From an uncultured Verrucomicrobia subdivision 3 bacterium (lineage in GTDB: Bacteria; Verrucomicrobiota; Verrucomicrobiia; Limisphaerales; UBA8199), in NCBI GenBank assembly GCA_903912925.1, contig CAIWJG010000631.1, positions 3,004-67,003 of the forward strand: DNA of 64,000 nt, in the 5' to 3' direction. Below are positions 2,654 to 46,262 of this stretch, piece by piece. The notes beneath the pieces are model-generated. The model was given only the letters and a program-made list of their open reading frames with translations, was not told where the DNA came from and searched no databases. Each line of letters starts with the position of its first letter. The first letter of the stretch is position 1. Made by a program: the position numbers and the translations under genes.

Positions 2654-3157
2654 TTGTTTGAGCAGGGCAATTATTCCGGCGGCGGCAACGGCGAAATGGG
2701 TCCCCTGCGGGCCTATGTCCTGGCCAAGCTGCTTTGGAACCCGGACACGGATGTGCAAAAGCACATCCAGGAGTTCGTGAACGCTTACTATGGCAAGGCC
2801 GCCCCGAAGATCCTGGCCTACATAGACACCACGCACAGCCCAGTGCGCGAGAAAGGCCTGCACGCCCACATCTTCGACGCTCCTACGTCTCGCTACCTGA
2901 AGAGCGATGTGATGGAAGCCGGGGAGAAGCTCCTCGACGAGGCTGAGCAATTGGCCGAGAACGACGACATTCGCTTCCGGGTGCAGGTAGCGCGCTTGCC
3001 CGTGTGGTACACGAAGATCGCCAACAAACGGATCACCGCGGAGGCCAGGAAGGATCTGGCCCGGCGGCTGGTTGGCATCGCTCGCAAGGCCGGCGTTTCG
3101 AACATAAACGAAGGAACCTCCCTTGACGACTGGGCCAAACAGCAGGGGGTTGAGTGA
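2654..3157 (+). CDS. DUF4838-like hydrolase, fragment 2 of 2 (same reading frame as 1373..2638)
   Basis: 2636 and 2654 are both frame 2. Reading through the TAG gives the continuous peptide RFFV*HGVKSLFEQGNYSGGGNGEMGPLRAYVLAKLLWNPD, so this is the C-terminal part of one gene. Confidence 0.75.
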   Translation: MFEQGNYSGGGNGEMGPLRAYVLAKLLWNPDTDVQKHIQEFVNAYYGKAAPKILAYIDTTHSPVREKGLHAHIFDAPTSRYLKSDVMEAGEKLLDEAEQLAENDDIRFRVQVARLPVWYTKIANKRITAEARKDLARRLVGIARKAGVSNINEGTSLDDWAKQQGVE

Positions 3158-3163
3158 GAATTG

Positions 3164-3321
3164 GAGTAACTGTTCAGGTGTGGGGCAGACCTCCGGTCTG
3201 CCGGTTCACGGAGTCTCTGACTCCGTGCCCATCGGGTCGCCGGAACACCGGGCCAGAGGCCCGGCTAACCGGCAGACCGGAGGTCTGCCCCACATTCTGA
3301 CCTGAACAGTTACCGCTCTCC
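3164..3321. repeat. Compound palindromic intergenic element (multi-stem, ~158 bp)
   Basis: ggagtaactgttcaggtgtggggcagacctccggtctgccggtt (3164-3206) is mirrored by aaccggcagaccggaggtctgccccacattctgacctgaacagttaccgctctcc (3267-3321). Nested small hairpins: cacggagtctctgactccgtg and ccgggccagaggcccgg. Confidence 0.8.
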
Positions 3322-3344
3322 ATGAACCCTGGCTCAACAGACTG

Positions 3345-6610: not shown

Positions 6611-8041
6611 ATGACAAAGCGTTTCTTTCTTTCCGTAGTCGCAATTCGCCTCGCCACGAGTTCCGCGCTCACGCCCCTGCTCGCCGCGGAGCTGGAGAAA
6701 GAGCCGGTCGCCCTCGGCACACGCGTGGAGATGTTTGTGGACGATTGGCTCATTGATGCAGGCCGCTCGCCCGGCACGGTATCGCTGCAACTGACCCCGC
6801 CCGTAAAGCGCGAGATTGTGCTCGTGACCGACAAGCCGTGGGAAGGGCCGGACAGCGCGTATTTCAGCGTATTCCAGGACGGCCCGCTGGTGCGGCTTTA
6901 CTATCGTGGCATTGTTCCGGCGGGTGACACCTCCATCGGGCAGGTCACTTGCTACGCGGAAAGCACCGATGGGATTCATTTCACCCGGCCTAACCTGGGG
7001 TTGGTTGAATTCGAGGGCTCGAAGGAGAACAACATCATTTACCGGGGCATCGAGGCACACAACTTCGCGCCGTTCCGCGATGCCAATCCGGCGGCCCGAC
7101 CGGAAGAGCGTTACAAAGCGATGGCCGGCATCCAGAGCAAACTCTACGCCTTCGTTGCCCCTGACGGCATCCACTGGACAAAGCTGCAAGCTGACCCGGT
7201 GATGACCAAAGGCGCGTTCGATTCGCTCAACCTATCCTTCTGGGACGACCGGACCCAGAACTACCGCTGCTTCTCCCGGCATTTCGAAGAGGGGGTGCGG
7301 GCTATTCAGAGTTGCACCTCCACGGACTTCATCCACTGGGCCGACCCGGTGCCTAATCGCTACCCCAAGCGCGCGCCGAAGGAGCACTTCTACACCAACG
7401 GCACGCGCCCCTGCCCCGGCGCGCCGCACATCTACCTGTCGTTCCCGAAACGCTTCGTGCCGGAGCGCAAGAAGTTCGCCGACTACAAAGAGATAGGCGT
7501 ATCCGACGCGGTGTTCCTGAGCAGCCGCGACGGGGAGAACTGGGACCGCACGTTTCTGGAAGCCTGGGTGCGCCCCGGCCCGGACAACCGCAACTGGACG
7601 CAGCGCAGCAACATGCCCGCCTGGGGCATCGTGCAACTCGATCCAACGGAGTTCTCGATGTACATCACCGAGCACTACGAATGGCCCGACCACCGGCTGC
7701 GCCGCATCACCGTGCGCCGACACGGCTTTGCTTCTGCACATGCCAGTGCGGCGGGCGGCGAATTCACAACGCGACCTGTGACGTTTACCGGGAAGAATCT
7801 GATACTGAATTACGCGACCTCAGCCGCGGGCGCGATCCAGGTCGAGGTGCAGGACGCGCACGGCAAGCCCATCGAAGGCCGGTCGCTTGCCGACATGCCG
7901 GTGCTGTTCGGCGACGAACTGGACGCGGTCGTCAGTTGGAAGTCTGGCAGCGACCTGTCCAGCCTTATCGGCAAGCCGGTGCGCTTCCGATTTGTCATGA
8001 AAGACGCTGATCTATTTGCTTTGAGAACTGGAACATTATGA
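6611..8041 (+). CDS. Secreted beta-propeller glycoside-hydrolase-like protein (GH32/43-clan-like fold, family not assigned)
   Basis: ATG 6611 gives the signal peptide MTKRFFLSVVAIRLATSSALTPLLAA. LFVDDWLID-type N-terminus and a C-terminal beta-sandwich-like part (NLILNYATSAAGAIQVEVQD...VRFRFVMKDADLFAL). CDS confidence is high; function confidence is low. Confidence 0.75.
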   Translation: MTKRFFLSVVAIRLATSSALTPLLAAELEKEPVALGTRVEMFVDDWLIDAGRSPGTVSLQLTPPVKREIVLVTDKPWEGPDSAYFSVFQDGPLVRLYYRGIVPAGDTSIGQVTCYAESTDGIHFTRPNLGLVEFEGSKENNIIYRGIEAHNFAPFRDANPAARPEERYKAMAGIQSKLYAFVAPDGIHWTKLQADPVMTKGAFDSLNLSFWDDRTQNYRCFSRHFEEGVRAIQSCTSTDFIHWADPVPNRYPKRAPKEHFYTNGTRPCPGAPHIYLSFPKRFVPERKKFADYKEIGVSDAVFLSSRDGENWDRTFLEAWVRPGPDNRNWTQRSNMPAWGIVQLDPTEFSMYITEHYEWPDHRLRRITVRRHGFASAHASAAGGEFTTRPVTFTGKNLILNYATSAAGAIQVEVQDAHGKPIEGRSLADMPVLFGDELDAVVSWKSGSDLSSLIGKPVRFRFVMKDADLFALRTGTL

Positions 8042-11000
8042 TTGCTGCACGAACGAACCAAGTGGGGAGAACATCCAACAACCAACATCGGCCGAACACC
8101 GAACATCGAACATCCAACATCCAACATCCAACGTCGAACATCCAACGGACGATTCCTGCCCCATCAGTGGGTGTTGGGTGTTCGAGGTTGGATGTTAGAT
8201 GTTTCCAGATCGTAATTGGTCTTATTGTGTTGCTCACAGCCGCGGCTGCTAGCCGAGGTGCGCAGCTAGACTTCCCGCCGCTCTGGCAGACCGACCTGCA
8301 GACGTTCCTGGAAAGCTCCGGGCTCGTCGCCGACCTCAAAGGCGACGGCCATGAGCGAGCGGTCATTGCGGGACGCGAGGATATGTTCGCCCTCGACGGC
8401 CAGGGGAAGGTGTTGTGGCGCTGGCGGTCCAAAGGACGCTTTATGACATACCCGGCGGTGCTGGTTCGCCCACCGCAGCCGTCCCTGGTTTACGCAGCGG
8501 ACAACAGCGGCTTGCTTACCTGCCTGGACGGAACGGGCAAGGAGGTTTGGCATGCGAAGTTGAATGCGCCGTCGAGCTGGTCCGCTTCTGTCGTTTGCGA
8601 TCTCAAGGGCAATAACGATGCTGATGTCATTCAGACCGACGAGACGGGCACGGTCTGGGCCTTCGAGGCGTTGACCGGCAAAGTGCTATGGCAGACGAAG
8701 CTCAAGGGCATACCCGTCAGCCCGGCGGTTGGCGACCTGGACGGTGATGGCAAGCCGGAGATCGTGGTGGCTACTGGGCAAGGAATCATCACAGCCCTCG
8801 GCGGCAACGGCACGGTGCTATGGGAGCGGACGATCGGCGGGTCGTCCCAATCCTGGGCCACCGCGGCGCCCGTCATCTTTGCTGGATCTGATGGGCGCGG
8901 TCGCGTGGCGGCTGCCTCAAGCGGCGGCCAACTCGTGTGCCTCGATGGCAAGGGCGAGGTATTGTGGCGCCGTCCAACTCATGGCGCGGCGGCTAGCTCG
9001 ATTTCCGTGGGTGATCTCGACCTGGATGGCCGGGCGGATATTTGTCTGATCACCCAAGCCGGCGTGATCTATCGCTTTGATGAAGACGGACGCGCAATCT
9101 GGGAGATTGACATGCAGGGCCGGAGCCTGGCACCCGGTGCGATCATCGACCTAGACGGCGATGGAAAGCCGGAATACGTGCTTAGCACGCAGGATGGCTT
9201 CTTGCAGGTCCTGAACGAAGCGGGCGAGTTCCTCTACCGCTTCCACTTCAGCAATCGCACAATCAATGTAACGCCAACCTTTGGCAACCTATCGGCGGAT
9301 TCGCCGGGGCTGGAAATGCTCATAACGGGCGGCGAAGCAGGCATTGTGTTCTGCTTACACACGCCGGCGGCAACCAACGCCGTCGCGCAGTGGAAGTCTT
9401 ATCGCGGCGACGTGCGCAACAGCGGTTCGTGGTTTGGCCTGCGGCAGTCGGGCGCGGTCCGGATCTCGCCGGTGAATCTGGCCGCCGATGAGGTGCTGAG
9501 CGGCCAGAGCCTGCGGTTCACGGTCGAGAATCCCCAGACGGAGCGGCATCCGCTCACCGCCACAGCCGTCTGCGTCCGTCCCGACGGCGCGAGGCAGGTC
9601 ACGACCACAACCGTGCTGGGCCGGAGCGGCGAGCTGCTGATGCCGTTGGATGTCACCGCGCCGGGCACCTACCAATTCAGTTGGACCTTGGCCGACGCAG
9701 GCGGGCGCACGCTGGTATCCGGCGGTCGGTCGCTGTTTCTTCAGCCGTTTGCCAACGACCGCGCGCTCGTCACGCGCGCGCTGGCTGCGCTCCGCGCGGC
9801 GGCGGAAGCAACAGATCCAGTGCTTCCACTTTCCGCCACGGCGCTTCGGCACGAAGCGACATCGCTGGAAGAGCGAGCCCGAGCGGTCGCCTCGCTTCAA
9901 GACTCCCTGCCCGGCAGCGGCGTAACCGGTTCGCAGGTCGTCCTGGATAAGTCAGCGGCGCTGGTTTCGCACGCCAAGCGGGCGCTGGCAGTCGCTGGTG
10001 TGATTCACCAGGCGACGGCCCTTGGTCAAGGCACAAGCCTGGTCGCTTTCCAGGGGACGCTATGGGAGAACCGGAAGGTGGACGAACAACTGCCCGCCCA
10101 GGCGGCCAACCCGCTTCGCATCACCCGCAAGGTGGTTCCCGGCGAGCATGAACCGGTCAGCTTGAACCTGTTCAACGTAACCGACCATGAGTTGCTGGTG
10201 CGCGTGCAGTTCCATGCTCTGACCAACGGGGTTGTGGTGGTTCCGCATCGGGCGGTGGGGGTGCCCACGTCTTTGGGTGAGGTCGCCTGGGACGCGATGC
10301 CCGAGTTGGACGAGAGCGGCACGCTGACCATCCCGTCCCTGGCCAGCCGGGAATTATGGCTGGATGTGGACCTGGGCGCCGCGAAACCGGGCAGCCACCA
10401 GGTCAAACTGCGTTTGCAGGCGCTCAACGGCGCGGGCGTGCTGGATGCGCCGACGCATCCTCACTCTGTGCCGCCGCCGGAGACTGCGATTGAAATTACG
10501 CTCCAGGTTGCCGACTTTGCTATGGCCGCGCCGGGTGATTTCCGCCTTTGCACGTGGGCCGCGCCGGAGGCAGCGCAACTGCCCGACCTGCTTGCCCACG
10601 GGAACAATGTCTTCACCGCTTCATTGCCTGCAGCGAAATATGACGCTCAGGGTCACTTGGCCGCGTCTGACTACAACGCGCTGGACCCGGTGTTGAGCAG
10701 GCTGCGAGGGAAGGATGTGGTGCTGATGTTGATGGGGATTCCCAGCCTGCACGGCGAATCCGGCAGCGCGGCTTATCGAGGCGACTTGAAGATATTCCTG
10801 GATGAGCTGGTGACACACATGGCGGGGGCGGGCTTCGATATAAAGCATTTTGCGCTGTATCCGTTTGACGAGCCGGGCGGTGTCGGTTGGACGCTGGTCA
10901 ATCCACTAGTCGAGTTCGGGAAGCAGGTCCGCGCGATCAACCCCGACCTGATGCTGTATGTGGACGGCGGGGGCGAGCTTCCCATGTTCCAGGCGATGGC

Positions 11001-17578: not shown

Positions 17579-17703
17579 CCAGCTCATTATGGTCGAGATG
17601 GGAACGCCGGGTGAGGGCACCCGGCCTACAAGAGGGCGGTTTTGCGGGAGTTGTAGGCTTGGTGCCCTCACCCGGCTGGGGATGACATGGCCATAATGGG
17701 CTG
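17579..17703. repeat. Palindromic intergenic element (~125 bp)
   Basis: ccagctcattatggtcgagatgggaacgccgggtgagggcacccggcctacaa (17579-17631) is mirrored by ttgtaggcttggtgccctcacccggctggggatgacatggccataatgggctg (17651-17703). Confidence 0.75.
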
Positions 17704-17739
17704 ACTTTCGCGAAGAACCGGCGAAACCCGCACGAATGG

Positions 17740-17825
17740 CTCGATTGTTCCTCGATTGTTCCTCGATTGTTCCTCGATTGTTCCTCGATTGTTCCTCGAT
17801 TGTTCCTCGATTGTTGCTCTATTGG
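17740..17825. repeat. 11-bp tandem repeat ctcgattgttc x ~7.5
   Basis: Perfect 11-nt periodicity from 17740 to 17805, then two degenerate units. The TAG stop of 17819..18610 lies in the last degenerate unit. Confidence 0.95.
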
Positions 17826-22067: not shown

Positions 22068-22673
22068 ATGGAAGGCCAATCCCCGGAGACACGCCACACG
22101 CCGCCAGTCGGTGTTCCGTCGCCGACTGCGGGAGCATCGACTGGAACTTCGGAGTCGCCCCCAACCTGCGGTTATGAGGGCGGTCCCGGTCCCTTGCGTG
22201 GCCTGACTGTTATTGCAGGTCTCGCTCTCCTTATCTGGGCACTTGCGACCCAGGGGGAGTCCGGGGCGGACGCAATGGTGCAGAAACTGGGACGGCTGGA
22301 AGTGACAGCGCGGCTCGTGGAGAGGCCGGACCAGTTTCCCAAGCTGGGCGCCTATCGCTATACCTACGTGCTGAAGTACAAAGTGGTCAGCGTCCACCGG
22401 CAGGATCCCGAGGGCAAGCATCCGCTCAAGACCGGTGATGAGATCTTCGTGGGCCATTACAAGCCGTGGCTGCCGCGGTCGGAGATCAAGGATTCAGACT
22501 GGGGCGACAGTCCGCTAGGCGGCAAGCTGGACCAATTTGTGACAGGCGACGTCCACCGCCTGGCGCTGGATTATGAGCTGCAAGATCTGGCGCCCAGCGG
22601 GGCGCTGGACTATTGCTTTCCGCCCGCCACCAACCGCTTCTTCGCCCTGTGGGCGAACCGGACGGCGTATTGA
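22068..22673 (+). CDS. Hypothetical single-pass membrane protein
   Basis: TM segment GLTVIAGLALLIWALA followed by a ~150-aa soluble domain. Start is uncertain; ATG 22068 is the first start after the upstream stop. Confidence 0.55.
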   Translation: MEGQSPETRHTPPVGVPSPTAGASTGTSESPPTCGYEGGPGPLRGLTVIAGLALLIWALATQGESGADAMVQKLGRLEVTARLVERPDQFPKLGAYRYTYVLKYKVVSVHRQDPEGKHPLKTGDEIFVGHYKPWLPRSEIKDSDWGDSPLGGKLDQFVTGDVHRLALDYELQDLAPSGALDYCFPPATNRFFALWANRTAY

Positions 22674-22677
22674 CTGT

Positions 22678-22880
22678 GAGTTACATGAGTTACATGAGTT
22701 ACATGAGTGCATGGGTTACATGGTTACATGGTTACATCGTTACATCGTTACATCGGGCAAGGGCAAGGGCAGCGGCTCCTCATGTAACTCATGCAACCAT
22801 TTAACCATGCACCCATGCACTCATGTAACCATGCAACCATGCAACCATGCACCTCATGTAACCGTGTAACCGTGTAACCA
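22678..22880. repeat. Hairpin element H3: ~200-bp imperfect palindrome with gttacatg-type 8-9-mer arms
   Basis: Left arm: gagttacat x3, ggttacat x3, cgttacat x3 (22678-22754). Loop ggcaagggcaagggcagcggctcc. Right arm: tcatgtaac / catgcaac / cgtgtaac units (22780-22880). Confidence 0.85.
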
Positions 22881-22893
22881 GACCAGAAAAGAC

Positions 22894-24300
22894 ATGGTCT
22901 TCACCACCCACATTTTTGTCTTCTACTTCCTGCCGGTTTTCCTGCTGGTGTATTTCAACCTGCCGTTCCGCTGGCGGAACTTGTGCATTACGGGCGCGAG
23001 CTACATCTTCTACGGCTGGTGGCAGCCCTGGTTCGTCTGCCTGATGATGTTTACCACCGTGATGGACTTTATCTGGGGCAAGTTCATCACCCGACCAGGC
23101 GCCACCCAGGCCCAACGCAAGCTCGCCGTCCTAGCCTGCGTCTTAACCAACCTGAGCTTCCTGGGCTTCTTCAAGTACTACATGTTCTCGGCGGAGTCAC
23201 TGAACCAGCTCCTGGGCTTGGTCGGAGCCGAGCCGTTCCGGGTGCTGCGCGTCGTGCTGCCCATCGGGATCTCTTTCTACACGTTCCATTCGCTGACCTA
23301 CATCATTGACCTTTATCGCGGCCATGCGACGCCGGCCAAATCCTTCACTGATTTCTCGGCGTTCGTGGCCCTGTTTCCCGACCTGGTGGCGGAGCCAATC
23401 ATCCGCTACAAGACGCTCGCAGCGCAGCTTGCCTTTCGCGAACACACGCTCCCACGCTTCACTAGCGGCATCACGCTCTTCATTCTCGGCTTCGCCAAGA
23501 AGATACTCCTGGCAAACCCCTGTGGGCACGTCGCCGACGCCGTATTTAACGCCGCAAATCCTTGCGCCCTCGACGCGTGGGTGGGGGTGCTGGCGTATGC
23601 CTTCCAGATCTACTTCGACTTCTGCGGATACTCCGATATGGCGGTGGGGCTCGGGCGTATGCTGGGCTTTGAGTTCCTCAAGAACTTCGATGCGCCCTAT
23701 CTGTCTGAGAGCATTACGGACTTGTGGCGCCGGTGGCACATCTCGCTTTCCAGCGTGCTGCGGGACTACTTGTACCTTCCGCTCGGCGGCAATCGTCTCG
23801 GCCCCTCGCGCACCTACGTAAACCTCGCCATAGTGATGCTCCTGGGCGGCCTCTGGCACGGCGCGAAATGGGTGTTCGTCTTGTGGGGCGCCTACCACGG
23901 CCTGTTGCTGGCTTACGAGCGCTGGCGCGGCAAACGGAGCTTATACCATACCCTGCCGCCGGGCTTCCGCATCGCGGTTACCTTTGTGCTTATCCTGTTT
24001 TCCTGGGTCTTGTTCCGGGCAGAGAACCTCAGGGCCGCCGGGCGTTACTTCGGCGCCATGTTCGGACTGATCCCAGCCACCACCACCTCGGCCTTATTGG
24101 CCGCAGACATCTATGCACCGCTCTATTTTCTGGTAATGACGGTCTGCGGCGTGCTGGTTTTCCAGCACGTGCAGGCTCACGAGTGGTCTCTGAAACCCCA
24201 GACCTGGCCCCGGCTGACGTTGCTGGTGCCCTTGTTCGTGTTCTCGTTGATGGTGATGTTCTCGCAGGCCTTCAACCCGTTTCTCTACTTCCAATTCTGA
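22894..24300 (+). CDS. MBOAT-family polysaccharide O-acyltransferase (AlgI/DltB-like)
   Basis: MVFTTHIFVFYFLPVFLLVYF, ISFYTFHSLTYIIDLYRG, WRRWHISLSSVLRDYLYLPLGGNR and GGLWHGA (conserved His). Confidence 0.9.
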   Translation: MVFTTHIFVFYFLPVFLLVYFNLPFRWRNLCITGASYIFYGWWQPWFVCLMMFTTVMDFIWGKFITRPGATQAQRKLAVLACVLTNLSFLGFFKYYMFSAESLNQLLGLVGAEPFRVLRVVLPIGISFYTFHSLTYIIDLYRGHATPAKSFTDFSAFVALFPDLVAEPIIRYKTLAAQLAFREHTLPRFTSGITLFILGFAKKILLANPCGHVADAVFNAANPCALDAWVGVLAYAFQIYFDFCGYSDMAVGLGRMLGFEFLKNFDAPYLSESITDLWRRWHISLSSVLRDYLYLPLGGNRLGPSRTYVNLAIVMLLGGLWHGAKWVFVLWGAYHGLLLAYERWRGKRSLYHTLPPGFRIAVTFVLILFSWVLFRAENLRAAGRYFGAMFGLIPATTTSALLAADIYAPLYFLVMTVCGVLVFQHVQAHEWSLKPQTWPRLTLLVPLFVFSLMVMFSQAFNPFLYFQF

Positions 24301-24306
24301 GCCGCG

Positions 24307-25596
24307 ATGTTGCACCCCACCCGCAAAAGCGAGTTAATCCTGCTGATCTGCTTCCTGGCGGTGATCGCCGGGGTGCCGGTCACTCAGACTTGCATCGAAC
24401 TCGCTCGGCACGAGCGGGTCCAGGCGACGGACGTTTTCCGGTATGAGCCGACTGCGAAGAACCTGCGGGAGTTCGAACACACACTTGAGGAGAAGTCGTG
24501 GTTCCAACAGCACCTGCGGCCCGTGCTGCAAAGATTTCTATTCGTGACCGTGCGCGATACCGGTGCCAAAGGTGTCCTCGGCCGCGACCAGTGGCTTTTC
24601 TATCGGCCGGATCTGCGCTACCTCGTTGAGCCCGACCGGGTGGAAGCCAGCACGAGCGAATCAAAATGGGTGCAACCACCGGAACAAAGCACCCATCGCG
24701 AGAGCGTCGAGCAGGCGATCCTCCGATTCCGGGACCAATTGAAGGAGCGGGGCATCATGCTGGTCGTGATGCCCGTGCCCGGCAAACCGAGCATCTATCC
24801 GGATCAGGTTACCCGGCGTGCCGTGGGGAACGAGCGCCAGTTCCGATCGCCCACGCTAGAGTTGATCGAGGAGCTCCAGCGCCAGGGGGTGGCAACCGTG
24901 GATTTGTTTACCGCCTTCCAAGAGATGCGGGGCAGTGGTGGGCCGCTTTACCTGGCGCGCGACACGCATTGGACACCGAGAGGGGCGCAAATCGCGGCGC
25001 AGAAGGTGGCCGCTAAACTTAGCGAATTACACATCCCTCCGTTGACCAGGAAGGAGTTCCGCACACAGAGCGTCACGGTCACGCGTTGGGGGGACATACT
25101 CGATATGATGCAGATTCCCGGCCTGCGAAGCGCATTTGCAGCGGAGACGGCGGAGTGCGCGCAGGTCCTGGATCCCGCTCTCGGCCCCCTGGTGCCTGGC
25201 GCCTCGGACCGGCCAGGCACTTACTGCTACCCCGGACAGCAGGCGGCTGTGCTGGTCCTCGGCGACAGCTTCTGCCGGATTTATCAATACCCCGAGCCGC
25301 AATCGCTGGGCAAAATGCCGACTGCCGCCACAACGGCTCGTCCGGCGGAAACGGGGGGCAAACGCCTGCTCCCCGGTTCTGCCGGCTTCATCTCCCACTT
25401 GGCTCTGGCTTTGGGGTCGCCCGTGGACGCGATCGTGAGCGATGGCGGAGCGGCGACGGATGTAAGGCGCAAGCTCAGCACTAATCCCGAAATCCTTGAG
25501 GGTAAACGGGTCATTATATGGGAATTCGTCGAGCGCGACATTGCCCTGGGCAGCCAGGGATGGCAGGACGTTGCCCTGCCGAGGAAACTGCAATGA
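24307..25596 (+). CDS. AlgJ/AlgX-like (SGNH-like, DHHW-type) O-acetylation partner protein
   Basis: N-terminal TM anchor LILLICFLAVIAGVPV, the motif YLARDTHWTPRGAQ, and position 6 nt downstream of the MBOAT gene. Confidence 0.75.
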   Translation: MLHPTRKSELILLICFLAVIAGVPVTQTCIELARHERVQATDVFRYEPTAKNLREFEHTLEEKSWFQQHLRPVLQRFLFVTVRDTGAKGVLGRDQWLFYRPDLRYLVEPDRVEASTSESKWVQPPEQSTHRESVEQAILRFRDQLKERGIMLVVMPVPGKPSIYPDQVTRRAVGNERQFRSPTLELIEELQRQGVATVDLFTAFQEMRGSGGPLYLARDTHWTPRGAQIAAQKVAAKLSELHIPPLTRKEFRTQSVTVTRWGDILDMMQIPGLRSAFAAETAECAQVLDPALGPLVPGASDRPGTYCYPGQQAAVLVLGDSFCRIYQYPEPQSLGKMPTAATTARPAETGGKRLLPGSAGFISHLALALGSPVDAIVSDGGAATDVRRKLSTNPEILEGKRVIIWEFVERDIALGSQGWQDVALPRKLQ

Positions 25597-26194
25597 CTTG
25601 TCCTTGAGGGGGCTCTCCTCTGAAGGATCAGGCGCTAGCGGACCAGTCGCCAGACGGTGCCCAGGCTCTCGCCCTGGGCCGGTTCCCCGAGCCTCGGCGA
25701 CCTCTCCGAACTCAACTTGGCGCCCCAAACAGCCGAGCCTGTGGCCCCCTATTCCTCCTACGCTGCATCGACCCCTCGCCGGGGTTGCGGAGATGAGCGG
25801 GCGGCAGGGGACGCTGTTGCCCCCATGACCCCGAAAACAGCGAAAAGCCGCTCTCTTCACACTCGGGAAGTGGAGCTGCCGGTTTCCGCCAACGTACGCC
25901 GAGAGCGACCGCAAAGGGGTTGCGCCTTGTGCCGTCCTGCATCGGCTCTCAAGTTTGAAATAATCCATTGGATAATATCGGACGACTTAACCTTGATCTG
26001 AAGTAGTTTGTTGTGGTAACCTTTGACCTTAGTAGCAGAGGGACCATGAAGGTCGCCGTCAGCCGCGGGCATGGCGGGAGACCCGAACAGCGGATTGCCA
26101 CATCCGCAGGAGTCGTTGGGGGTTCATGGCGGAAGGAATGAGGGGTCGGGACCCTGACTACCTAATGCCCGGAATACAGTAAGAAATTGAATAT

Positions 26195-27061
26195 ATGAGT
26201 CAGAGTCGTAGGGCTTTTGCCCGCAGGTCTGGTTTTACGTTGATTGAGCTGCTGGTAGTCATTGCCATCATCGCCATCTTGGCGGCGTTGCTGTTGCCGG
26301 CCTTGGCCGGGGCGAAGGCCAGGGCGCAGGCGGTGCAATGCATGAACAGCAGCCGCCAGTTGTTGCTCGCCTGGAAATTCTATTGCGACGACAACGGAGA
26401 AAAGGTGCCTTCTGCTTGGTACCCATCTGACGCCGCCAAGCAAGGCGACTGGTGGCCCGTTCCTGACATGCATCGGCCAGTCAATCCCACGACGGATGGC
26501 GCATACGAATACAACTGGAACCCCGACAAGACAGTGAAGCTGAGCCCGTTGTGGCCTTACTGCGGAAACAGCCCTGCCATCTTCCGGTGCCCGGCGGACA
26601 ACAAATATCCCTGTACGGTTACTACCGGGCCTTTCGCAGGCCAATCCTTCCCCCGGGCGCGAAGCATGTCCATGCTCAGTTGGTTTAACGGAGAGGATGC
26701 GCTTAGCGTCAGCGGCACTCCGGGCTACACCGTGTATAGGAAAACCACCGACATGATAAAGCCCGGCCCCGCGATGACTCTGGTCTTCCTGGACGAGCGA
26801 GCGGATACCATCAACGACGGTGAGTGGTGTACCAGCATGGCTGGGTGGGACCCGTATCAGCCTAACTCTTGGACCATTGTTGATATTCCGGGCAATTACC
26901 ACGGCGGCGCGTGCGGCGTTGGTTTTGCTGACGGTCACTCGGAGATTCATAAATGGAAAGACAAAGCACTGAATGCCCCCTTTGGCAGTAATCCGCGTAT
27001 ACCCGCAGCGAATAGCAAGGATGCTTATTGGATTATGGAGCGTTCCACCCGAAAACCCTGA
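26195..27061 (+). CDS. Prepilin-type N-terminal cleavage/methylation domain protein, DUF1559 / H-X9-DG
   Basis: [44 protein letters not shown] and C-terminal [15 protein letters not shown] (exact H-X9-DG). Confidence 0.9.
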
Positions 27062-27083
27062 CCGACCGCGCACCTCACGCGAA

Positions 27084-27428
27084 ATGAAAGCGACCAATGT
27101 TGCCTTTGCTCTACTGGCGGTTTGCTTGGTGGCTGTCGCCGGTTGCAGGAAGTCGGATCAATACGTAGCGACCAACACCCAATTCAACGGCGTTAAGGTT
27201 GACTGGCCTAAGCTCGAAACTGAGTTTGCCAGCGGTGATCAGGAGTTGCAGGCCGCTGCGTCCTTGACGGTCCGTCATATTCGTTATTCGCAGTTCCCCG
27301 AAGCCCTGGGTGACTTGGATGGGCTTATGGCCAACCCCAAGCTAACGGAAGCGCAGAAGAAGTTAGTGGCTGAGTTGGCCGAGCAAACGAAGCAGGCGCT
27401 CGCAAAGGCGCCTGCGCCTGGCCAGTGA
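27084..27428 (+). CDS. Small lipoprotein, function unknown
   Basis: ATG 27084 gives MKATNVAFALLAVCLVAVAGC (lipobox VAGC). Lies 22 nt downstream of the H-X9-DG gene. Confidence 0.65.
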   Translation: MKATNVAFALLAVCLVAVAGCRKSDQYVATNTQFNGVKVDWPKLETEFASGDQELQAAASLTVRHIRYSQFPEALGDLDGLMANPKLTEAQKKLVAELAEQTKQALAKAPAPGQ

Positions 27429-27545
27429 AGCGGCGGGCCGGCATCCTAACCGCGGCCGCGGCCATTAATTGTCGCCACTAAGTGCCTGGAGGGGTGGCCC
27501 AGAACCCCGAGGTTCGTAGCGCTCCCCGGCTTCTACGGAAGCTGA

Positions 27546-30495: not shown

Positions 30496-30555
30496 AGCAT
30501 GGGAGGGCGAGCATCCTTCCAAGTGCGTCTCAGTGGTCCATTAGGAAGCGGCCTT

Positions 30556-30605
30556 CCCCCTCACCCCAGCCATCTCCTCAGGGAAGAGGGTCAGGGTGAG
30601 GGGGA
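30556..30605. terminator. GC hairpin between convergent genes (possible bidirectional terminator)
   Basis: ccccctcaccc ... gggtgaggggg stem with a ~28-nt loop. Located between the stop at 30495 (+) and the stop at 30625 (-). No clear U-tract. Confidence 0.4.
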
Positions 30606-33181: not shown

Positions 33182-36067
33182 CTAAGTTTGATGCAGAGGC
33201 ATTAGAATGGAAACCGAGGTGCCGGTGCCAGGTTTCGTCGTAATCTCCAGCGACCCACCAACCTGCTGGACGCGCTCGCGGAGGTTCTGCAAGCCGCTGC
33301 CCGCGATGGTTCGCGCTGGATCGAAGCCGCGCCCGTCGTCTTTGACGGTGAGGTTCAGTTGCCCGTCGTTCAGTCTTAAGCCAACGGTGACCTCGCGCGC
33401 CCCGGCATGTTTGGCAACGTTGGCCAGCGACTCCTTCACCACGGCCAGCAATTCATGCCGCACGCGAGCGGGCACCTCAACCGAACTTTCGCCGGCGGGC
33501 AAGTCCAGCCGGCATTCCAGGCCGGCCGCCTGACAAAATCGTTCGGTCAATTCGCCGATGAACGCTACCAGGCTGCCGGTGTTGTCGCAGCGCGGATTGG
33601 TCGTCCACGCCAGCTCGCGCAACTCGTGCGCCAGCGACCGTGTCTCGCCGGCCAGGCTCTCAAGCTGCCCGGACGCAGCGCTGCCGCGGCGCTGAGCGGC
33701 CTCGAGCTGCAGCGCCAGGCCGGTGAGGCTGGCGCCCAGGTCGTCGTGCAGATCCCGGGCGATACGAGCCCGCTCTTCCGCCAGTACGGTGACCTGCTGG
33801 GCGCGCAGGGTGCGCCCTTGCCAGCGGAGCCGGTAAGCTTGCACGCCCCCTGCGGTGCCGATAACGAGCGCGGCGCACAGGACGTAAAAGGCCCACGTTT
33901 CGTAAAAGTGCGGCGCAACGTAAAACGAGAACTGCTCGCCTTGCTCGTTCCAAACGCCGTGCGAGTTGCAAGCCGCGACGCAGAAGGTGTAGTCGCCGGG
34001 GCGGAGGTTGGTATAGAACGCCACCCGGCGGTTTTGGTCATCCTCAAGCCAGTCCGCGTCGTAGCCCTCGAGCCTATACTTGAAGCGCACCCGCTCGGGC
34101 GCCGCGAGACTGTCGGCCGTGTAATGAATTTCCAGCACCCGCCCCCGCCCCGGCCTGATCTGCATTCGAGGTTGGATGTTCGATGTTGGATGTTCGATGT
34201 TCTTGCCCCCGCCCGCGCATCCATCCCCAAACACCACTTCCCCATTCGCCCGCACCTGCTCAATCACCACCGGCGACGCCAATTCCGCGCTCTGCATTTC
34301 CTTGGGATCAATCATCACGACGCCCTGCACAGTGGGAAACCAAATCCGCCCCTGCTGGTCCTTGCAACCGGCGGGCTGATTGTCCCCGCCATTGCACTCG
34401 CTGTTCAGCATCCCATCGGCCTCCCCGTAAGCGGTGCACTCCACCCTGGCCCGCCGCCCGGCCGCCACCTCGTTCAGTTGCTGCCGCGAAATGCGGTAAA
34501 TGCCGCGCAACCCGCTCAGCCAAAGATAGCCGAAATCATCCTCCTGGATGTTATTCACCACGTTCTCGCCCAATCCCTGCTCCTTCGTGAAGGTGAAGAA
34601 CCGCCGCTCGTTCTCCCCCGCCTGCCCATTTCTACTTTCTGCTTTCTGCTTTCTGCTTTGTTCAGCCCCTGCGGGCACAAACCGGTTCAGGCCGTCCTCC
34701 GTGCCCACCCAGAAAACCCCATCAGTGTCCTCATGAATCCACCACGCACGGTTATTGTGCTCGCCGCGGTTGGTTTTGTAGGCCGTGAATCTTCCATCCT
34801 TGAGGCGATTCAGCCCGCCGCCATAAGTCCCAAACCACATGTCCCCACGCCGGTCCTGATAGATAGCGCGCGCGTCACCGTGAGAAAGCCCCTGGTTGGT
34901 GGAATAGCTGCTCCACTGCTCACCATCCCGGCACAGCACTGCGGTCCTGATGCCAAGCCATATCCGGCCCTGCCGATCCTCGAACAGAGCCTTAAGGTCC
35001 TGCCCATCCCCTATTTCTCCCGGGGCGGGCAGCATCTGCCATTCCCCGCCTCGGAAACGCGCCAAGTGAGGGCCCGGCCAGGCTACCCATACCGCGTCGT
35101 GCCGGTCGGCCAGGAACACCCCGATCCGGCCCCACTCCCTGCCCTCCTGCGGGGCTTTCACATTCTCCACTTTCCCTGCTCGAATGCCGCTGAGGCCCGC
35201 GGCCGTCCCCACCCAACTCGTGCCGTCGGTGCCCTGGGTGACCGCTTGCGTGTCATCGTTCCGCAACCCCTCACGCCGTGAATACGCTCTGATCCGCTTC
35301 GGCTCCAACCGGAACAGCCCGGTCGTCGTCCCCACCCAAAGATCCCCTTCGCGATCTTCCAGCACGCGGGTGACATTCAGATCCTCGGGAAACTCAGGCG
35401 CCGCAAAAGGCTCCAGCCGCCCCTGAATCAGCCGGTGCAAGCCAGTGTGGCCGCCCTCGAGACGACGAGTGACCCATACCCGGCCATCGCTGGTCCGGCA
35501 AATCCGCTGTTGCCAGGGCCTTGATTCCAGGCCCGCGCTCGCCACCACTGTCCAGACGCCCTTGCTGCCCCGCCAGATGCTGGTGCCGGTGCAGAGCCAG
35601 AGCGAGCCGTCGGCCGCCCCAAGAAACGAAAAGCACGACGAGAGATCCGTGGACGGCACCTCCGGCGGGCTGAGCGAGGTCAACGACTTCGTGTTCAAAT
35701 CCAGCCGCTGAAGGCCACCCCCTACAGCCGCCCCCCCGAGCAGGACCAGCAGTCGTGAGGAACTCTCCTCGCCCAACTGCCTTACAGGATACTCACTGCC
35801 CGCCGAACCGAACGTCCAGGTTTGCACCCGCCCCCCGCGCGCCAGCGCCACCCGGCCTGCCTGCGGCGAGAACCAAACGCCGCCCGCCCGAGCCGCGCAG
35901 AGCGGACCAACCGGATCAGTCACCCCCCCTTCCGCCTCATAGCGCTCGAACCGATGATCGCGGTAATACAACAAGCCGTCGCCGGCACCGATCCACAAGC
36001 TGCCATCCTTCTGGTCCACCGCCAGATCGTTAAAACCGTTCCCGACACCGTGCCATCGCTCTTCCAC
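33182..36067 (-). CDS. Sensor histidine kinase: Reg_prop beta-propeller repeats + Y_Y_Y + TM + HisKA_3 + HATPase_c (5' end apparently displaced by a frameshift)
   Basis: Repeated DG.LW.GT..GL motifs. Y_Y_Y segment RPGDYTFCVAACNSHGVW. TM segment WAFYVLCAALVIGTAGGV. H-box ARIARDLHDDLGASLTGL. ATPase segment DDGRGFD...GSGLQNLRERV. The track ORF starts at a GTG directly after a TGA and has no N-terminal signal or TM segment. Confidence 0.9.
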   Translation of the reverse strand: MEERWHGVGNGFNDLAVDQKDGSLWIGAGDGLLYYRDHRFERYEAEGGVTDPVGPLCAARAGGVWFSPQAGRVALARGGRVQTWTFGSAGSEYPVRQLGEESSSRLLVLLGGAAVGGGLQRLDLNTKSLTSLSPPEVPSTDLSSCFSFLGAADGSLWLCTGTSIWRGSKGVWTVVASAGLESRPWQQRICRTSDGRVWVTRRLEGGHTGLHRLIQGRLEPFAAPEFPEDLNVTRVLEDREGDLWVGTTTGLFRLEPKRIRAYSRREGLRNDDTQAVTQGTDGTSWVGTAAGLSGIRAGKVENVKAPQEGREWGRIGVFLADRHDAVWVAWPGPHLARFRGGEWQMLPAPGEIGDGQDLKALFEDRQGRIWLGIRTAVLCRDGEQWSSYSTNQGLSHGDARAIYQDRRGDMWFGTYGGGLNRLKDGRFTAYKTNRGEHNNRAWWIHEDTDGVFWVGTEDGLNRFVPAGAEQSRKQKAESRNGQAGENERRFFTFTKEQGLGENVVNNIQEDDFGYLWLSGLRGIYRISRQQLNEVAAGRRARVECTAYGEADGMLNSECNGGDNQPAGCKDQQGRIWFPTVQGVVMIDPKEMQSAELASPVVIEQVRANGEVVFGDGCAGGGKNIEHPTSNIQPRMQIRPGRGRVLEIHYTADSLAAPERVRFKYRLEGYDADWLEDDQNRRVAFYTNLRPGDYTFCVAACNSHGVWNEQGEQFSFYVAPHFYETWAFYVLCAALVIGTAGGVQAYRLRWQGRTLRAQQVTVLAEERARIARDLHDDLGASLTGLALQLEAAQRRGSAASGQLESLAGETRSLAHELRELAWTTNPRCDNTGSLVAFIGELTERFCQAAGLECRLDLPAGESSVEVPARVRHELLAVVKESLANVAKHAGAREVTVGLRLNDGQLNLTVKDDGRGFDPARTIAGSGLQNLRERVQQVGGSLEITTKPGTGTSVSILMPLHQT
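34168..34202. repeat. Half-copy of the H1/H2 7-mer array inside the kinase CDS
   Basis: gaggttggatgttcgatgttggatgttcgatgttc is translated on the minus strand as GKNIEHPTSNIQP, in frame, within the kinase. Confidence 0.85.
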
Positions 36068-41354: not shown

Positions 41355-41578
41355 GAGGCCCCCGGGGCTGCTCTAAAGTCCGGCCAGTTGAGGGAAGATC
41401 CTGTTCTGCAGCCCTGAAATCCGAAGACCGAAGGCCGAAATCCGAATTCCGAGAATGGCCTGATTCGATTGGCTGCTGCTCCGCCGGGGTGGCTATCAAT
41501 TCGGACCTCGGCCTTCGGATTTGAGCACTGCTCGCTGGGAACGGGAGGACCTTAGAACAGCCCTGGGAGGCCCCTGCC
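41355..41578. repeat. Hairpin element H4 (shares the outer module with H1 and another module with H5)
   Basis: 41371-41446 matches 1134-1209 at 74 of 76 nt (hand count). Inner palindrome aaatccgaagaccgaaggccgaaatccgaattc...gaattcggacctcggccttcggattt. The right module 41527-41565 is the reverse complement of 46059-46097. Confidence 0.85.
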
Positions 41579-46057: not shown

Positions 46058-46262
46058 AGGGCTGCTCTAAGGTTCTCCCGTTCCCAGCAAGCAGTTCCCT
46101 GTAGGCCGCGTGCCCCCACGCGGCGTTCGGGCTCAAATCCGAAGCTCGAAAACCGAAAAGGGCCAGCCACCCTGGGGGCGGTGTTTCGGTGTTTCGGTAT
46201 TGGGTGTTGGATGTTTCGGTGTTTCGGTGCTTCGGTTTTCGGATTTAGTCAGAGCGCCCCCG
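46058..46262. repeat. Hairpin element H5 (ggtgtttc 8-mer arm; shares a module with H4)
   Basis: The left module gggctgctctaaggttctcccgttcccagcaagcagttc equals the reverse complement of the H4 right module at about 35 of 39 nt (hand count). aaatccgaagctcgaaaaccgaaa pairs with cttcggttttcggattt. Right arm ggtgtttcggtgtttcggtattgggtgttggatgtttcggtgtttcggtgcttcgg. Confidence 0.8.

Follow-up and report, generated by a model that had tools for sequence, protein, structure and literature searches.

How does a hairpin of about 200 nt, built of some 20 short repeat units, come to lie between two genes of a Verrucomicrobial operon, and what is kept in it, the structure or the sequence? A sequence-only reading of the locus had proposed that structure rather than sequence is propagated or selected, or else that a common mechanism makes such hairpins de novo. 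Here, the element, called H3 (positions 22678-22879), is set against the rest of the 64-kb stretch of DNA that was analysed (the window), against relatives and against metagenome loci. The host of the window belongs to the Verrucomicrobiota and is of Limisphaerales/Pedosphaera type; its GC content is about 60%, and the best matches of its MBOAT protein are MAG proteins, 90% identical.

Layout of the element

H3 stands directly behind gene X (22068-22673, plus strand, from gene calls on the identical contigs L081 and L082), whose TGA stop at 22671-22673 is followed by CTGT and then by the left arm. Gene X gave no family match in a Pfam scan; it is a conserved neighbor of the MBOAT gene, and its C terminus (...NRFFALWANRTAY, then the stop) is kept in relatives. 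The arms are two opposed arrays of 8- to 9-nt units (core GTTACAT/ATGTAAC) flanking a GC-rich loop. TRF detects both arrays, and a repeat finder gives 22 inverted pairs.

In the left arm (22678-22753), eight of the nine units consist of a GA, GG, G, or C linker and the GTTACAT core, and the ninth is the variant GAGTGCATG. The order is GAGTTACAT three times, starting with the first unit of the element, then GAGTGCATG, GGTTACAT three times, and two full copies of CGTTACAT, the last block yielding three copies only when read in phase GTTACATC. An earlier description of this arm as three blocks of three is right for GAGTTACAT and GGTTACAT but not for CGTTACAT, and it passed over GAGTGCATG. The loop (22754-22779) is made of a C and three copies, or near copies, of a GGGCAA-type hexamer, followed by GCAGCGGCTCC. 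The right arm (22780-22879) consists of 12 units with the core ATGTAAC and the variants ATGCAAC, ATTTAAC, ATGCAC, and GTGTAAC. Its units (TCATGTAAC, CATGCAAC, CATTTAAC, CATGCAC(C), and CGTGTAAC, with GTGTAACC as the last) are of the general type (T)CATGYAAC or CGTGTAAC, and they show a higher-order period of roughly 32 nt. This arm had been read as the complement of the left one; the two do pair, but the order of the units is not mirror-wise, and pairing works because all units have one common core.

Downstream lies what looks like a retained native spacer of 14 nt (AGACCAGAAAAGAC, 22880-22893, plus strand), which resembles the 9-nt spacers of element-free relatives. The gene that follows encodes an AlgI-like MBOAT O-acyltransferase (22894-24300, plus strand; Pfam PF03062, E value of 1.5e-20; homologues are named AlgI by JGI), and its operon partner encodes an AlgX/SGNH-like acetyltransferase (24307-25596, plus strand; PF16822, E value of 6e-33). 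The sequence thus bears out the layout first described, with opposed arrays filling the gap from the stop to the MBOAT gene and ending 14 nt before the ATG.

A likeness between the loops of H3 and of another hairpin in the window, H1, was also correctly seen: the 12-mers GGCAGCGGCTCC in H3 and GGCGGCGGCTCC in H1 (1272-1283) differ by one mismatch, and there are only four such matches in the window, two of them being these loops. As a family signature, GGCGGCGGCTCC was rejected; it is found only in H1, in H3, and partly in L003, and other GTTACAT loops are unrelated. CATG was likewise rejected as a conserved feature, given units with a C, T, or A linker that lack it. The MBOAT start context (ACATGGTC) resembles the unit ACATGGTT at seven of eight positions, and we judged the likeness, which might have suggested seeding, to be coincidental because it occurs at the wrong flank of H3 and is missing at other loci.

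Folding and reality of the sequence

As plus-strand RNA, H3 folds at -92.5 kcal/mol, compared with -58.9 ± 4.7 in dinucleotide shuffles (z of -7.1), and none of 200 shuffles folds as well. The folding-energy check that had been proposed therefore places H3 far beyond chance. As DNA, the z value is -7.7. The minus-strand RNA reaches -104.1 (z of -8.6), so that the antisense folds better than the sense. H3 is unchanged in three other assemblies of the same strain (L081, L082, and L083; 99.99% identical), in one of which (L083) the contig breaks in the loop. It is not an assembly artefact, and the worry that it might be unique to one assembly can be set aside.

History of the gene X-MBOAT spacer

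Spacers of relatives were fetched from 80 loci, many of them with a short gap of 9 to 12 nt. The distance from the gene X stop to the MBOAT ATG is of this size in L001, L204, L208 to L212, and most of about 30 relatives, and a relative with a 97%-identical MBOAT has a 9-nt spacer (by gene coordinates) and no element. One lineage at 90% identity (L003 and L205 to L207) carries a short homologous element at the same site, with 4 + 4 GTTACAT units and the loop GGGGCGGCGGAGGTAGCTGC. The stop context is GTATTGA in the element-bearing lineages and CTACTAG or GTACTAG at empty sites. In the tree, the window, L001, and L003 form a trichotomy at about 85% nt identity; together with the element-free relative at 97%, this means that the element must have been either lost precisely more than once or gained more than once.

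The empty orthologous spacers (9 to 12 nt) contain no unit-like seed, which argues that H3 was brought in and did not grow from local sequence; a de novo origin at this site thus seems unlikely. Of the suggestion that a common mechanism makes such hairpins de novo, the common mechanism finds support only in the sense of slippage within the arms, and the de novo origin seems unlikely given the seedless empty sites. Between filled sites (window and L003) and empty ones (L001, L204, L208, and L211), we found no target-site duplication and no duplicated flank.

A check of orthologous MBOAT upstream regions for hairpins built from yet other units had been proposed, and two other lineages have different hairpin repeats there: in L002 the spacer is occupied by a pair of GTAG-headed palindromes, and in L004 by an inverted-repeat element of CCCTCACCC type. 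These two hairpins appear to have colonized the spacer independently, and the spacer itself tolerates various self-folding insertions. Persistence of the core over about 15% nt divergence (window versus L003) could reflect selection instead of homogenization.

Unit number between strains

In a sister strain (L213/L214), the MBOAT protein is 99% identical to that of the window, and the flanks are 96 to 98% identical in nucleotides. Its spacer measures 361 nt, compared with 220 nt in the window, and its right arm has 31 units, compared with 12, both values resting for L213 on a single short-read assembly. In the right arm of L213, seven units, about 57 nt in all, form a block that is present in triplicate, and there is one extra CGTGTAAC; the left arm, with 9 units, is nearly as in the window, with two linker changes. 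At an unrelated orthologous pair (L115/L121), between convergent genes, one arm has 15 units versus 5. These differences indicate that the arms expand and contract independently. Pairing survives such changes because every unit has the same core, yet with 31 units on the right and 9 on the left, a matched hairpin is not maintained in the sister strain. Comparison of strains and relatives thus shows both the insertion of H3 at this site and the independent gain and loss of units and unit blocks in each arm. Unit slippage clearly appears to be the common mutational process that shapes the arms.

Over the 16.4 kb in which the window and the sister strain could be compared, indels of at least 5 nt are nearly all tandem arrays or palindromic elements.

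Several other differences between these strains were seen along the way. An 11-mer direct array without an inverted partner (CTCGATTGTTC, 7.7 copies, 17740-17824) has four units more in the window than in the sister strain, and a separate 120-nt hairpin lies just upstream of it, at about 17600-17720. L214 carries at 8276-8345 a 69-nt GTAG-headed palindrome (GTAGCACCTCTAACCC/GGGGTTAGAGGTGCTAC) that is missing at window position 25777, a REP-like presence/absence polymorphism. At 30549-30603, the window has a bare hairpin (CCCCCTCACCCCAGCCATCTCC/GGAAGAGGGTCAGGGTGAGGGGG), just the two outer arms of an inverted-repeat element; L214 (12990-13160) has 165 nt more between the same arms (window 30583), including an AACATCC tandem-unit hairpin. 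Microhomology of 1 to 4 nt is found at the junctions, and the comparison suggests a hairpin-mediated deletion in the window strain. Identity between the strains drops to 78.7% at 25774-27435, versus 97 to 99% in the flanks. A gene with a prepilin-type N-methylation motif lies within this region (26195-27061), which suggests recombination or diversifying change in the pilin-like gene. Finally, 109 nt of the window (27435-27543), between a small ORF 3' of the pilin-like gene and a DUF3748/PD40 gene, are missing in the sister strain.

The GTTACAT family and other unit families

Hairpins with GTTACAT units were found at at least 13 independent, unrelated loci, on contigs with a GC content of 0.54 to 0.65. 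Where neighboring genes were checked, at two of these loci, both were Verrucomicrobiae, Pedosphaera-like. The polarity is fixed as 5'-GTTACAT...ATGTAAC-3': the inverted partner lies downstream in 17 arrays (13 elements) and upstream in none, compared with an unbiased 4 versus 5 in a control on viral contigs. GTTACAT had been introduced simply as a different repeat unit; with at least 13 unrelated loci and a fixed polarity, it is no one-off. The same recurrence (17 versus 0 in polarity) speaks against the proposal that structure rather than sequence is propagated, as do the unequal arms of the sister strain (9 versus 31), the nonconcordant linkers, and the lack of a sense-strand bias, the last two of which are taken up below.

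More broadly, tandem runs of at least three GTTACAT units occur at no fewer than 120 metagenome loci, many of which lie on high-GC contigs, and about half of the arrays on such contigs have no inverted partner. The primary entity may therefore be the array, not the hairpin. Units grow more degenerate outward along the arrays (GTTAAAT, GTTACAA, and GTTATAT), as would be expected of arrays homogenized by slippage. The loops are GC rich and unrelated between loci; copies at other loci share only the unit core and the polarity, and none is nearly identical to another. We infer dispersal from the common unit and polarity only, as neither a target-site duplication nor conserved termini accompany it. 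Plasmid and phage collections yielded no similar DNA in a search whose low-complexity filter may hide matches. The window has one GTTACAT element, with 7 copies of the motif outside it versus 2.3 expected. Dispersal in the manner of uptake sequences was rejected, with only these 7 extra copies in 64 kb.

The architecture does recur with many units, as first proposed, both in this genome and in relatives: AACATCS, CCGAAGN, CGTAAT, AACGCTC, a 12-mer, and TGCGTGT. In the window, H1 (1128-1403) has AACATCS arms inside CCGAAGN arms, in a MITE-like frame shared with 41365-41575; H2 (8066-8205) has AACATCC units in the same architecture; and a further tandem-unit hairpin lies at 46130-46250. The relatives contribute L041 (CGTAAT), L063 (AACGCTC), L065 (the 12-mer), L166 (TGCGTGT), and L155 (CCGAAGC). 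The density is about 5 such hairpins in the 64-kb window versus about 9 in 0.9 Mb of relatives.

Some of these repeats touch coding sequence. The frame of H1 has the ends CAGGGCTRCTCTAAAGTC and GACTTTAGAGCAGCCCTG, and about 60 nt of it, including GTCCGGCCAGTTGAGGGAAGATC, recur at 41378; on the right, the frame extends over the first codons of a DUF4838 glycosidase-like gene (ATG 1373). The stretch 8038-8205, which includes H2, lies inside the 5' end of a 1,187-aa ORF that starts at 8038 in an ATGA stop/start overlap. Either translation would run through the repeat before reaching a signal-peptide-like segment, or the gene would really begin at TTG 8188, within the right arm. Within the ORF of a 961-aa hybrid sensor kinase (33182-36067, minus strand) lies, in frame, a heptamer array of AACATC type (TTCGATG, 5.4 copies on the plus strand, 34165-34202); its translation, ...GGGKNIEHPTSNIQPRMQ..., immediately precedes the Y_Y_Y domain. 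By appearance, a repeat has been inserted into a coding loop and tolerated there. Of all local folds in the window, the most stable (GC-corrected z of about -6) is at 3150-3340, a near-perfect inverted repeat of roughly 190 nt without tandem units (GAATTGGAGTAACTGTTCAGGTGTGGGGCAGACCTCCGGTCTGCCGG...), which looks like another MITE-like element. In L133 (1-130), four GTTACAT units stand in tandem, on one side only, in the loop of a hairpin whose arms are of AAAGGCT/GAAGGCT, so that two unit families are nested.

Likeness to known systems

H3 shows the defining features of REP/BIME sequences, MITEs, heptamer arrays, and 5'-leader simple sequence repeats (SSRs) each only in part. With REP and BIME sequences it shares being extragenic, hairpin forming, dispersed, and 3' of stops within or between operons, as well as presence/absence polymorphism between strains (PMC3733652, PMC2817692); H3 itself lies 4 nt after a stop, inside an operon. 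REPs, however, are single palindromes of 20 to 40 nt with a conserved tetranucleotide head (GTAG and CGTC superfamilies) and an associated RAYT transposase (PMC3733652, PMC2817692). H3 is about 200 nt long (about 350 nt in the sister strain), with a 76-nt arm of 9 units and a 100-nt arm of 12 units, and has neither a GTAG nor a CGTC head. GTAG-headed palindromes coexist with it in these genomes (the L002 spacer and the L214 insertion at window 25777) and look different. Among about 35 window proteins scanned with Pfam, there was no RAYT, other transposase, or other mobilizing gene.

MITEs, like H3, are small noncoding inverted-repeat elements inserted between genes, and in Porphyromonas gingivalis, MITEs that carry an internal minisatellite are documented to vary in repeat number within the element (PMC4596501). 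H1 offers a parallel, being a tandem-unit hairpin nested in a MITE-like element whose inverted ends are common to 41365-41575. In contrast, H3 has no distinct terminal inverted repeats outside its arrays, no target-site duplication, and no near-identical copies.

Cyanobacterial STRR and Beggiatoaceae TAACTGA repeats (PMC4679880) are family-specific 7-nt tandem units that are intergenic and often a few nucleotides from a start codon, with one unit at many loci in several genomes and in variable copy number. Those are direct repeats, however; the same source reports 169 direct TAACTGA sets and one indirect set in the "Maribeggiatoa" genome (PMC4679880). H3 is an opposed array pair forming a long hairpin, with a polarity that is fixed here and at at least 13 other loci. 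Phase-variable SSRs in 5' leaders resemble H3 in that hypermutable units stand in tandem ahead of the start codon, downstream of a promoter or of another gene, and in Haemophilus influenzae, RNA structure and RNase III are implicated (PMC12721329); the H3 class, in contrast, is not confined to contingency genes.

Intrinsic (Rho-independent) terminators share with H3 a stem-loop 3' of a stop codon. Their stems have 5 to 20 bp, whereas that of H3 has about 80 bp, lacks a T-tract, and is followed 14 nt on by the next gene of the operon. A consensus scan of H3 found no promoter and no terminator (no T-tract on either strand). Rfam 15 gave 0 matches over the whole window at the gathering threshold, and on H3, at E values of up to 10, only weak subthreshold miRNA-like chance matches. 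H3 is thus probably not a terminator, a promoter, or a riboswitch. Our literature search found no description of this hairpin class, and "GTTACAT" as a search term yielded only primers.

A likely inserted inverted minisatellite

At somewhat better than even odds (about 0.55), we take H3 to be an inserted member of a dispersed, lineage-restricted, noncoding family of "inverted minisatellites" that grow and shrink by unit slippage. The family plan would be two opposed tandem arrays of an 8- to 9-nt unit whose core, GTTACAT, is usually followed by G, GA, or GG. Insertion occurred right after the stop of gene X, into what is otherwise a 9- to 12-nt intercistronic spacer of a conserved gene X-MBOAT-AlgX operon, and the later changes in units would be due to slipped-strand mispairing or unequal exchange. 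A strong hairpin would persist, as DNA or as RNA of either strand, because the common core lets any register of the arms zip up. H3 would be tolerated between such tightly spaced genes because self-folding brings stop and start together: in the folded element, the stop (4 nt before the stem) and the start (14 nt after it) would again be close. On the polycistronic mRNA, the likely effect would be that of a long near-perfect duplex, which might block exonucleases or be cut by RNase III; such an effect is plausible but unproven. In sum, H3 looks like a fast-evolving genomic repeat and not a conserved regulatory RNA.

Other explanations

One could instead see in H3 a selected cis-acting RNA hairpin of the operon mRNA, serving as a stabilizer, an RNase III site, or a terminator without a U-tract that uncouples MBOAT and AlgX. 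The very stable fold would suit this role, as would the position of H3 right after a stop and 14 nt before a start and its persistence in two lineages that are 15% diverged. The class as a whole also lies 3' of stops: in the gene context of about 30 such hairpins, almost all closely follow a stop codon, the neighboring genes being tandem or convergent, and at most two doubtful cases are placed between divergent genes. We nevertheless consider this role unlikely. The antisense of H3 folds better than the sense, and among 24 elements of known orientation, the sense was the more stable in 14 and the antisense in 10 (P = 0.34), which is no bias; this comparison gives no support for RNA-level selection. 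The covariation that had been suggested as a check is not seen either: across 13 independent elements, arm-to-arm linker concordance within elements is not above that between elements (P = 0.20), and there are no compensatory changes between arms. Close relatives with the same operon lack the element, the arms of the sister strain are grossly unequal, and there is neither a T-tract nor an Rfam match.

A bolder idea, which we hold to be quite unlikely, is that Pedosphaera-like Verrucomicrobia harbor undescribed self-propagating "zipper" repeats, inverted minisatellites fixed in polarity and comprising several unit families (GTTACAT, AACATCS, CCGAAGN, and others). A dedicated sequence-specific factor would copy them or seed them after stops, and the arm lengths, which change rapidly, would act as tunable intercistronic valves.

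Genes for surface-polysaccharide O-acetylation are often phase variable, and by Pfam, the genes downstream of H3 are of this type. Could H3 then be a contingency locus, a phase switch or rheostat in which the number of units in the 5' leader tunes the AlgI-like MBOAT and AlgX-like pair? Unit number differs between close strains (12 versus 31 right-arm units), as at contingency loci, and the change lies directly before a start codon. Repeats in the 5' untranslated regions of Haemophilus genes are described as acting via RNA structure and RNase III (PMC12721329). But the same kind of element flanks housekeeping genes (such as those for an M42 peptidase, an rRNA methyltransferase, and glycosidases), the window strain has the same sequence in three assemblies, and the unit length is not tied to the reading frame or to promoter spacing. 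This makes a contingency locus very unlikely.

We give just as little credence to an array of binding sites for a factor that recognizes GTTACAT(G) in DNA or RNA, with the hairpin incidental or serving to present the sites. Such a factor would account for a core that is kept while linkers vary in length and sequence, for the fixed polarity, and for direct-only GTTACAT arrays, which are common. The closest described case is the Beggiatoaceae TAACTGA arrays upstream of starts, for which binding of a posttranscriptional regulator was proposed (PMC4679880). Against this stand the degenerate cores in the right arm of H3 (ATGCAAC, ATGCAC, and GTGTAAC), the only mild enrichment of the motif outside the element (7 versus 2.3 expected in 64 kb), and the lack of a candidate protein; the conservation of the core in the metagenome set is also partly a matter of ascertainment. 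Lastly, an assembly or sequencing artefact, such as a fold-back chimera or a repeat that was collapsed or expanded, is scarcely credible, for although contigs do break within such hairpins (L083 starts in the loop) and the L213 length comes from one short-read assembly, H3 lies inside long contigs, recurs unchanged in three other assemblies that differ in sample and in record-naming style, has orthologous versions in other species, and shares its architecture with other loci.

Implications

Should the description hold, the genomes of these bacteria would contain hundreds of long minisatellite-armed hairpins, a figure extrapolated from about 5 in 64 kb (versus about 9 in 0.9 Mb of relatives). 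Such elements are a hazard for assembly and annotation: contigs are interrupted in the loops, and ORFs are called across the arrays. They would also offer a natural system for studying how palindromes survive in bacterial genomes, with a common unit core making pairing robust to slippage. At this locus, strains are predicted to differ in how a polysaccharide O-acetylation module is coupled to the genes upstream of it. For an abundant and poorly studied soil and freshwater phylum, the family would be a previously uncharacterized source of strain-level indels.
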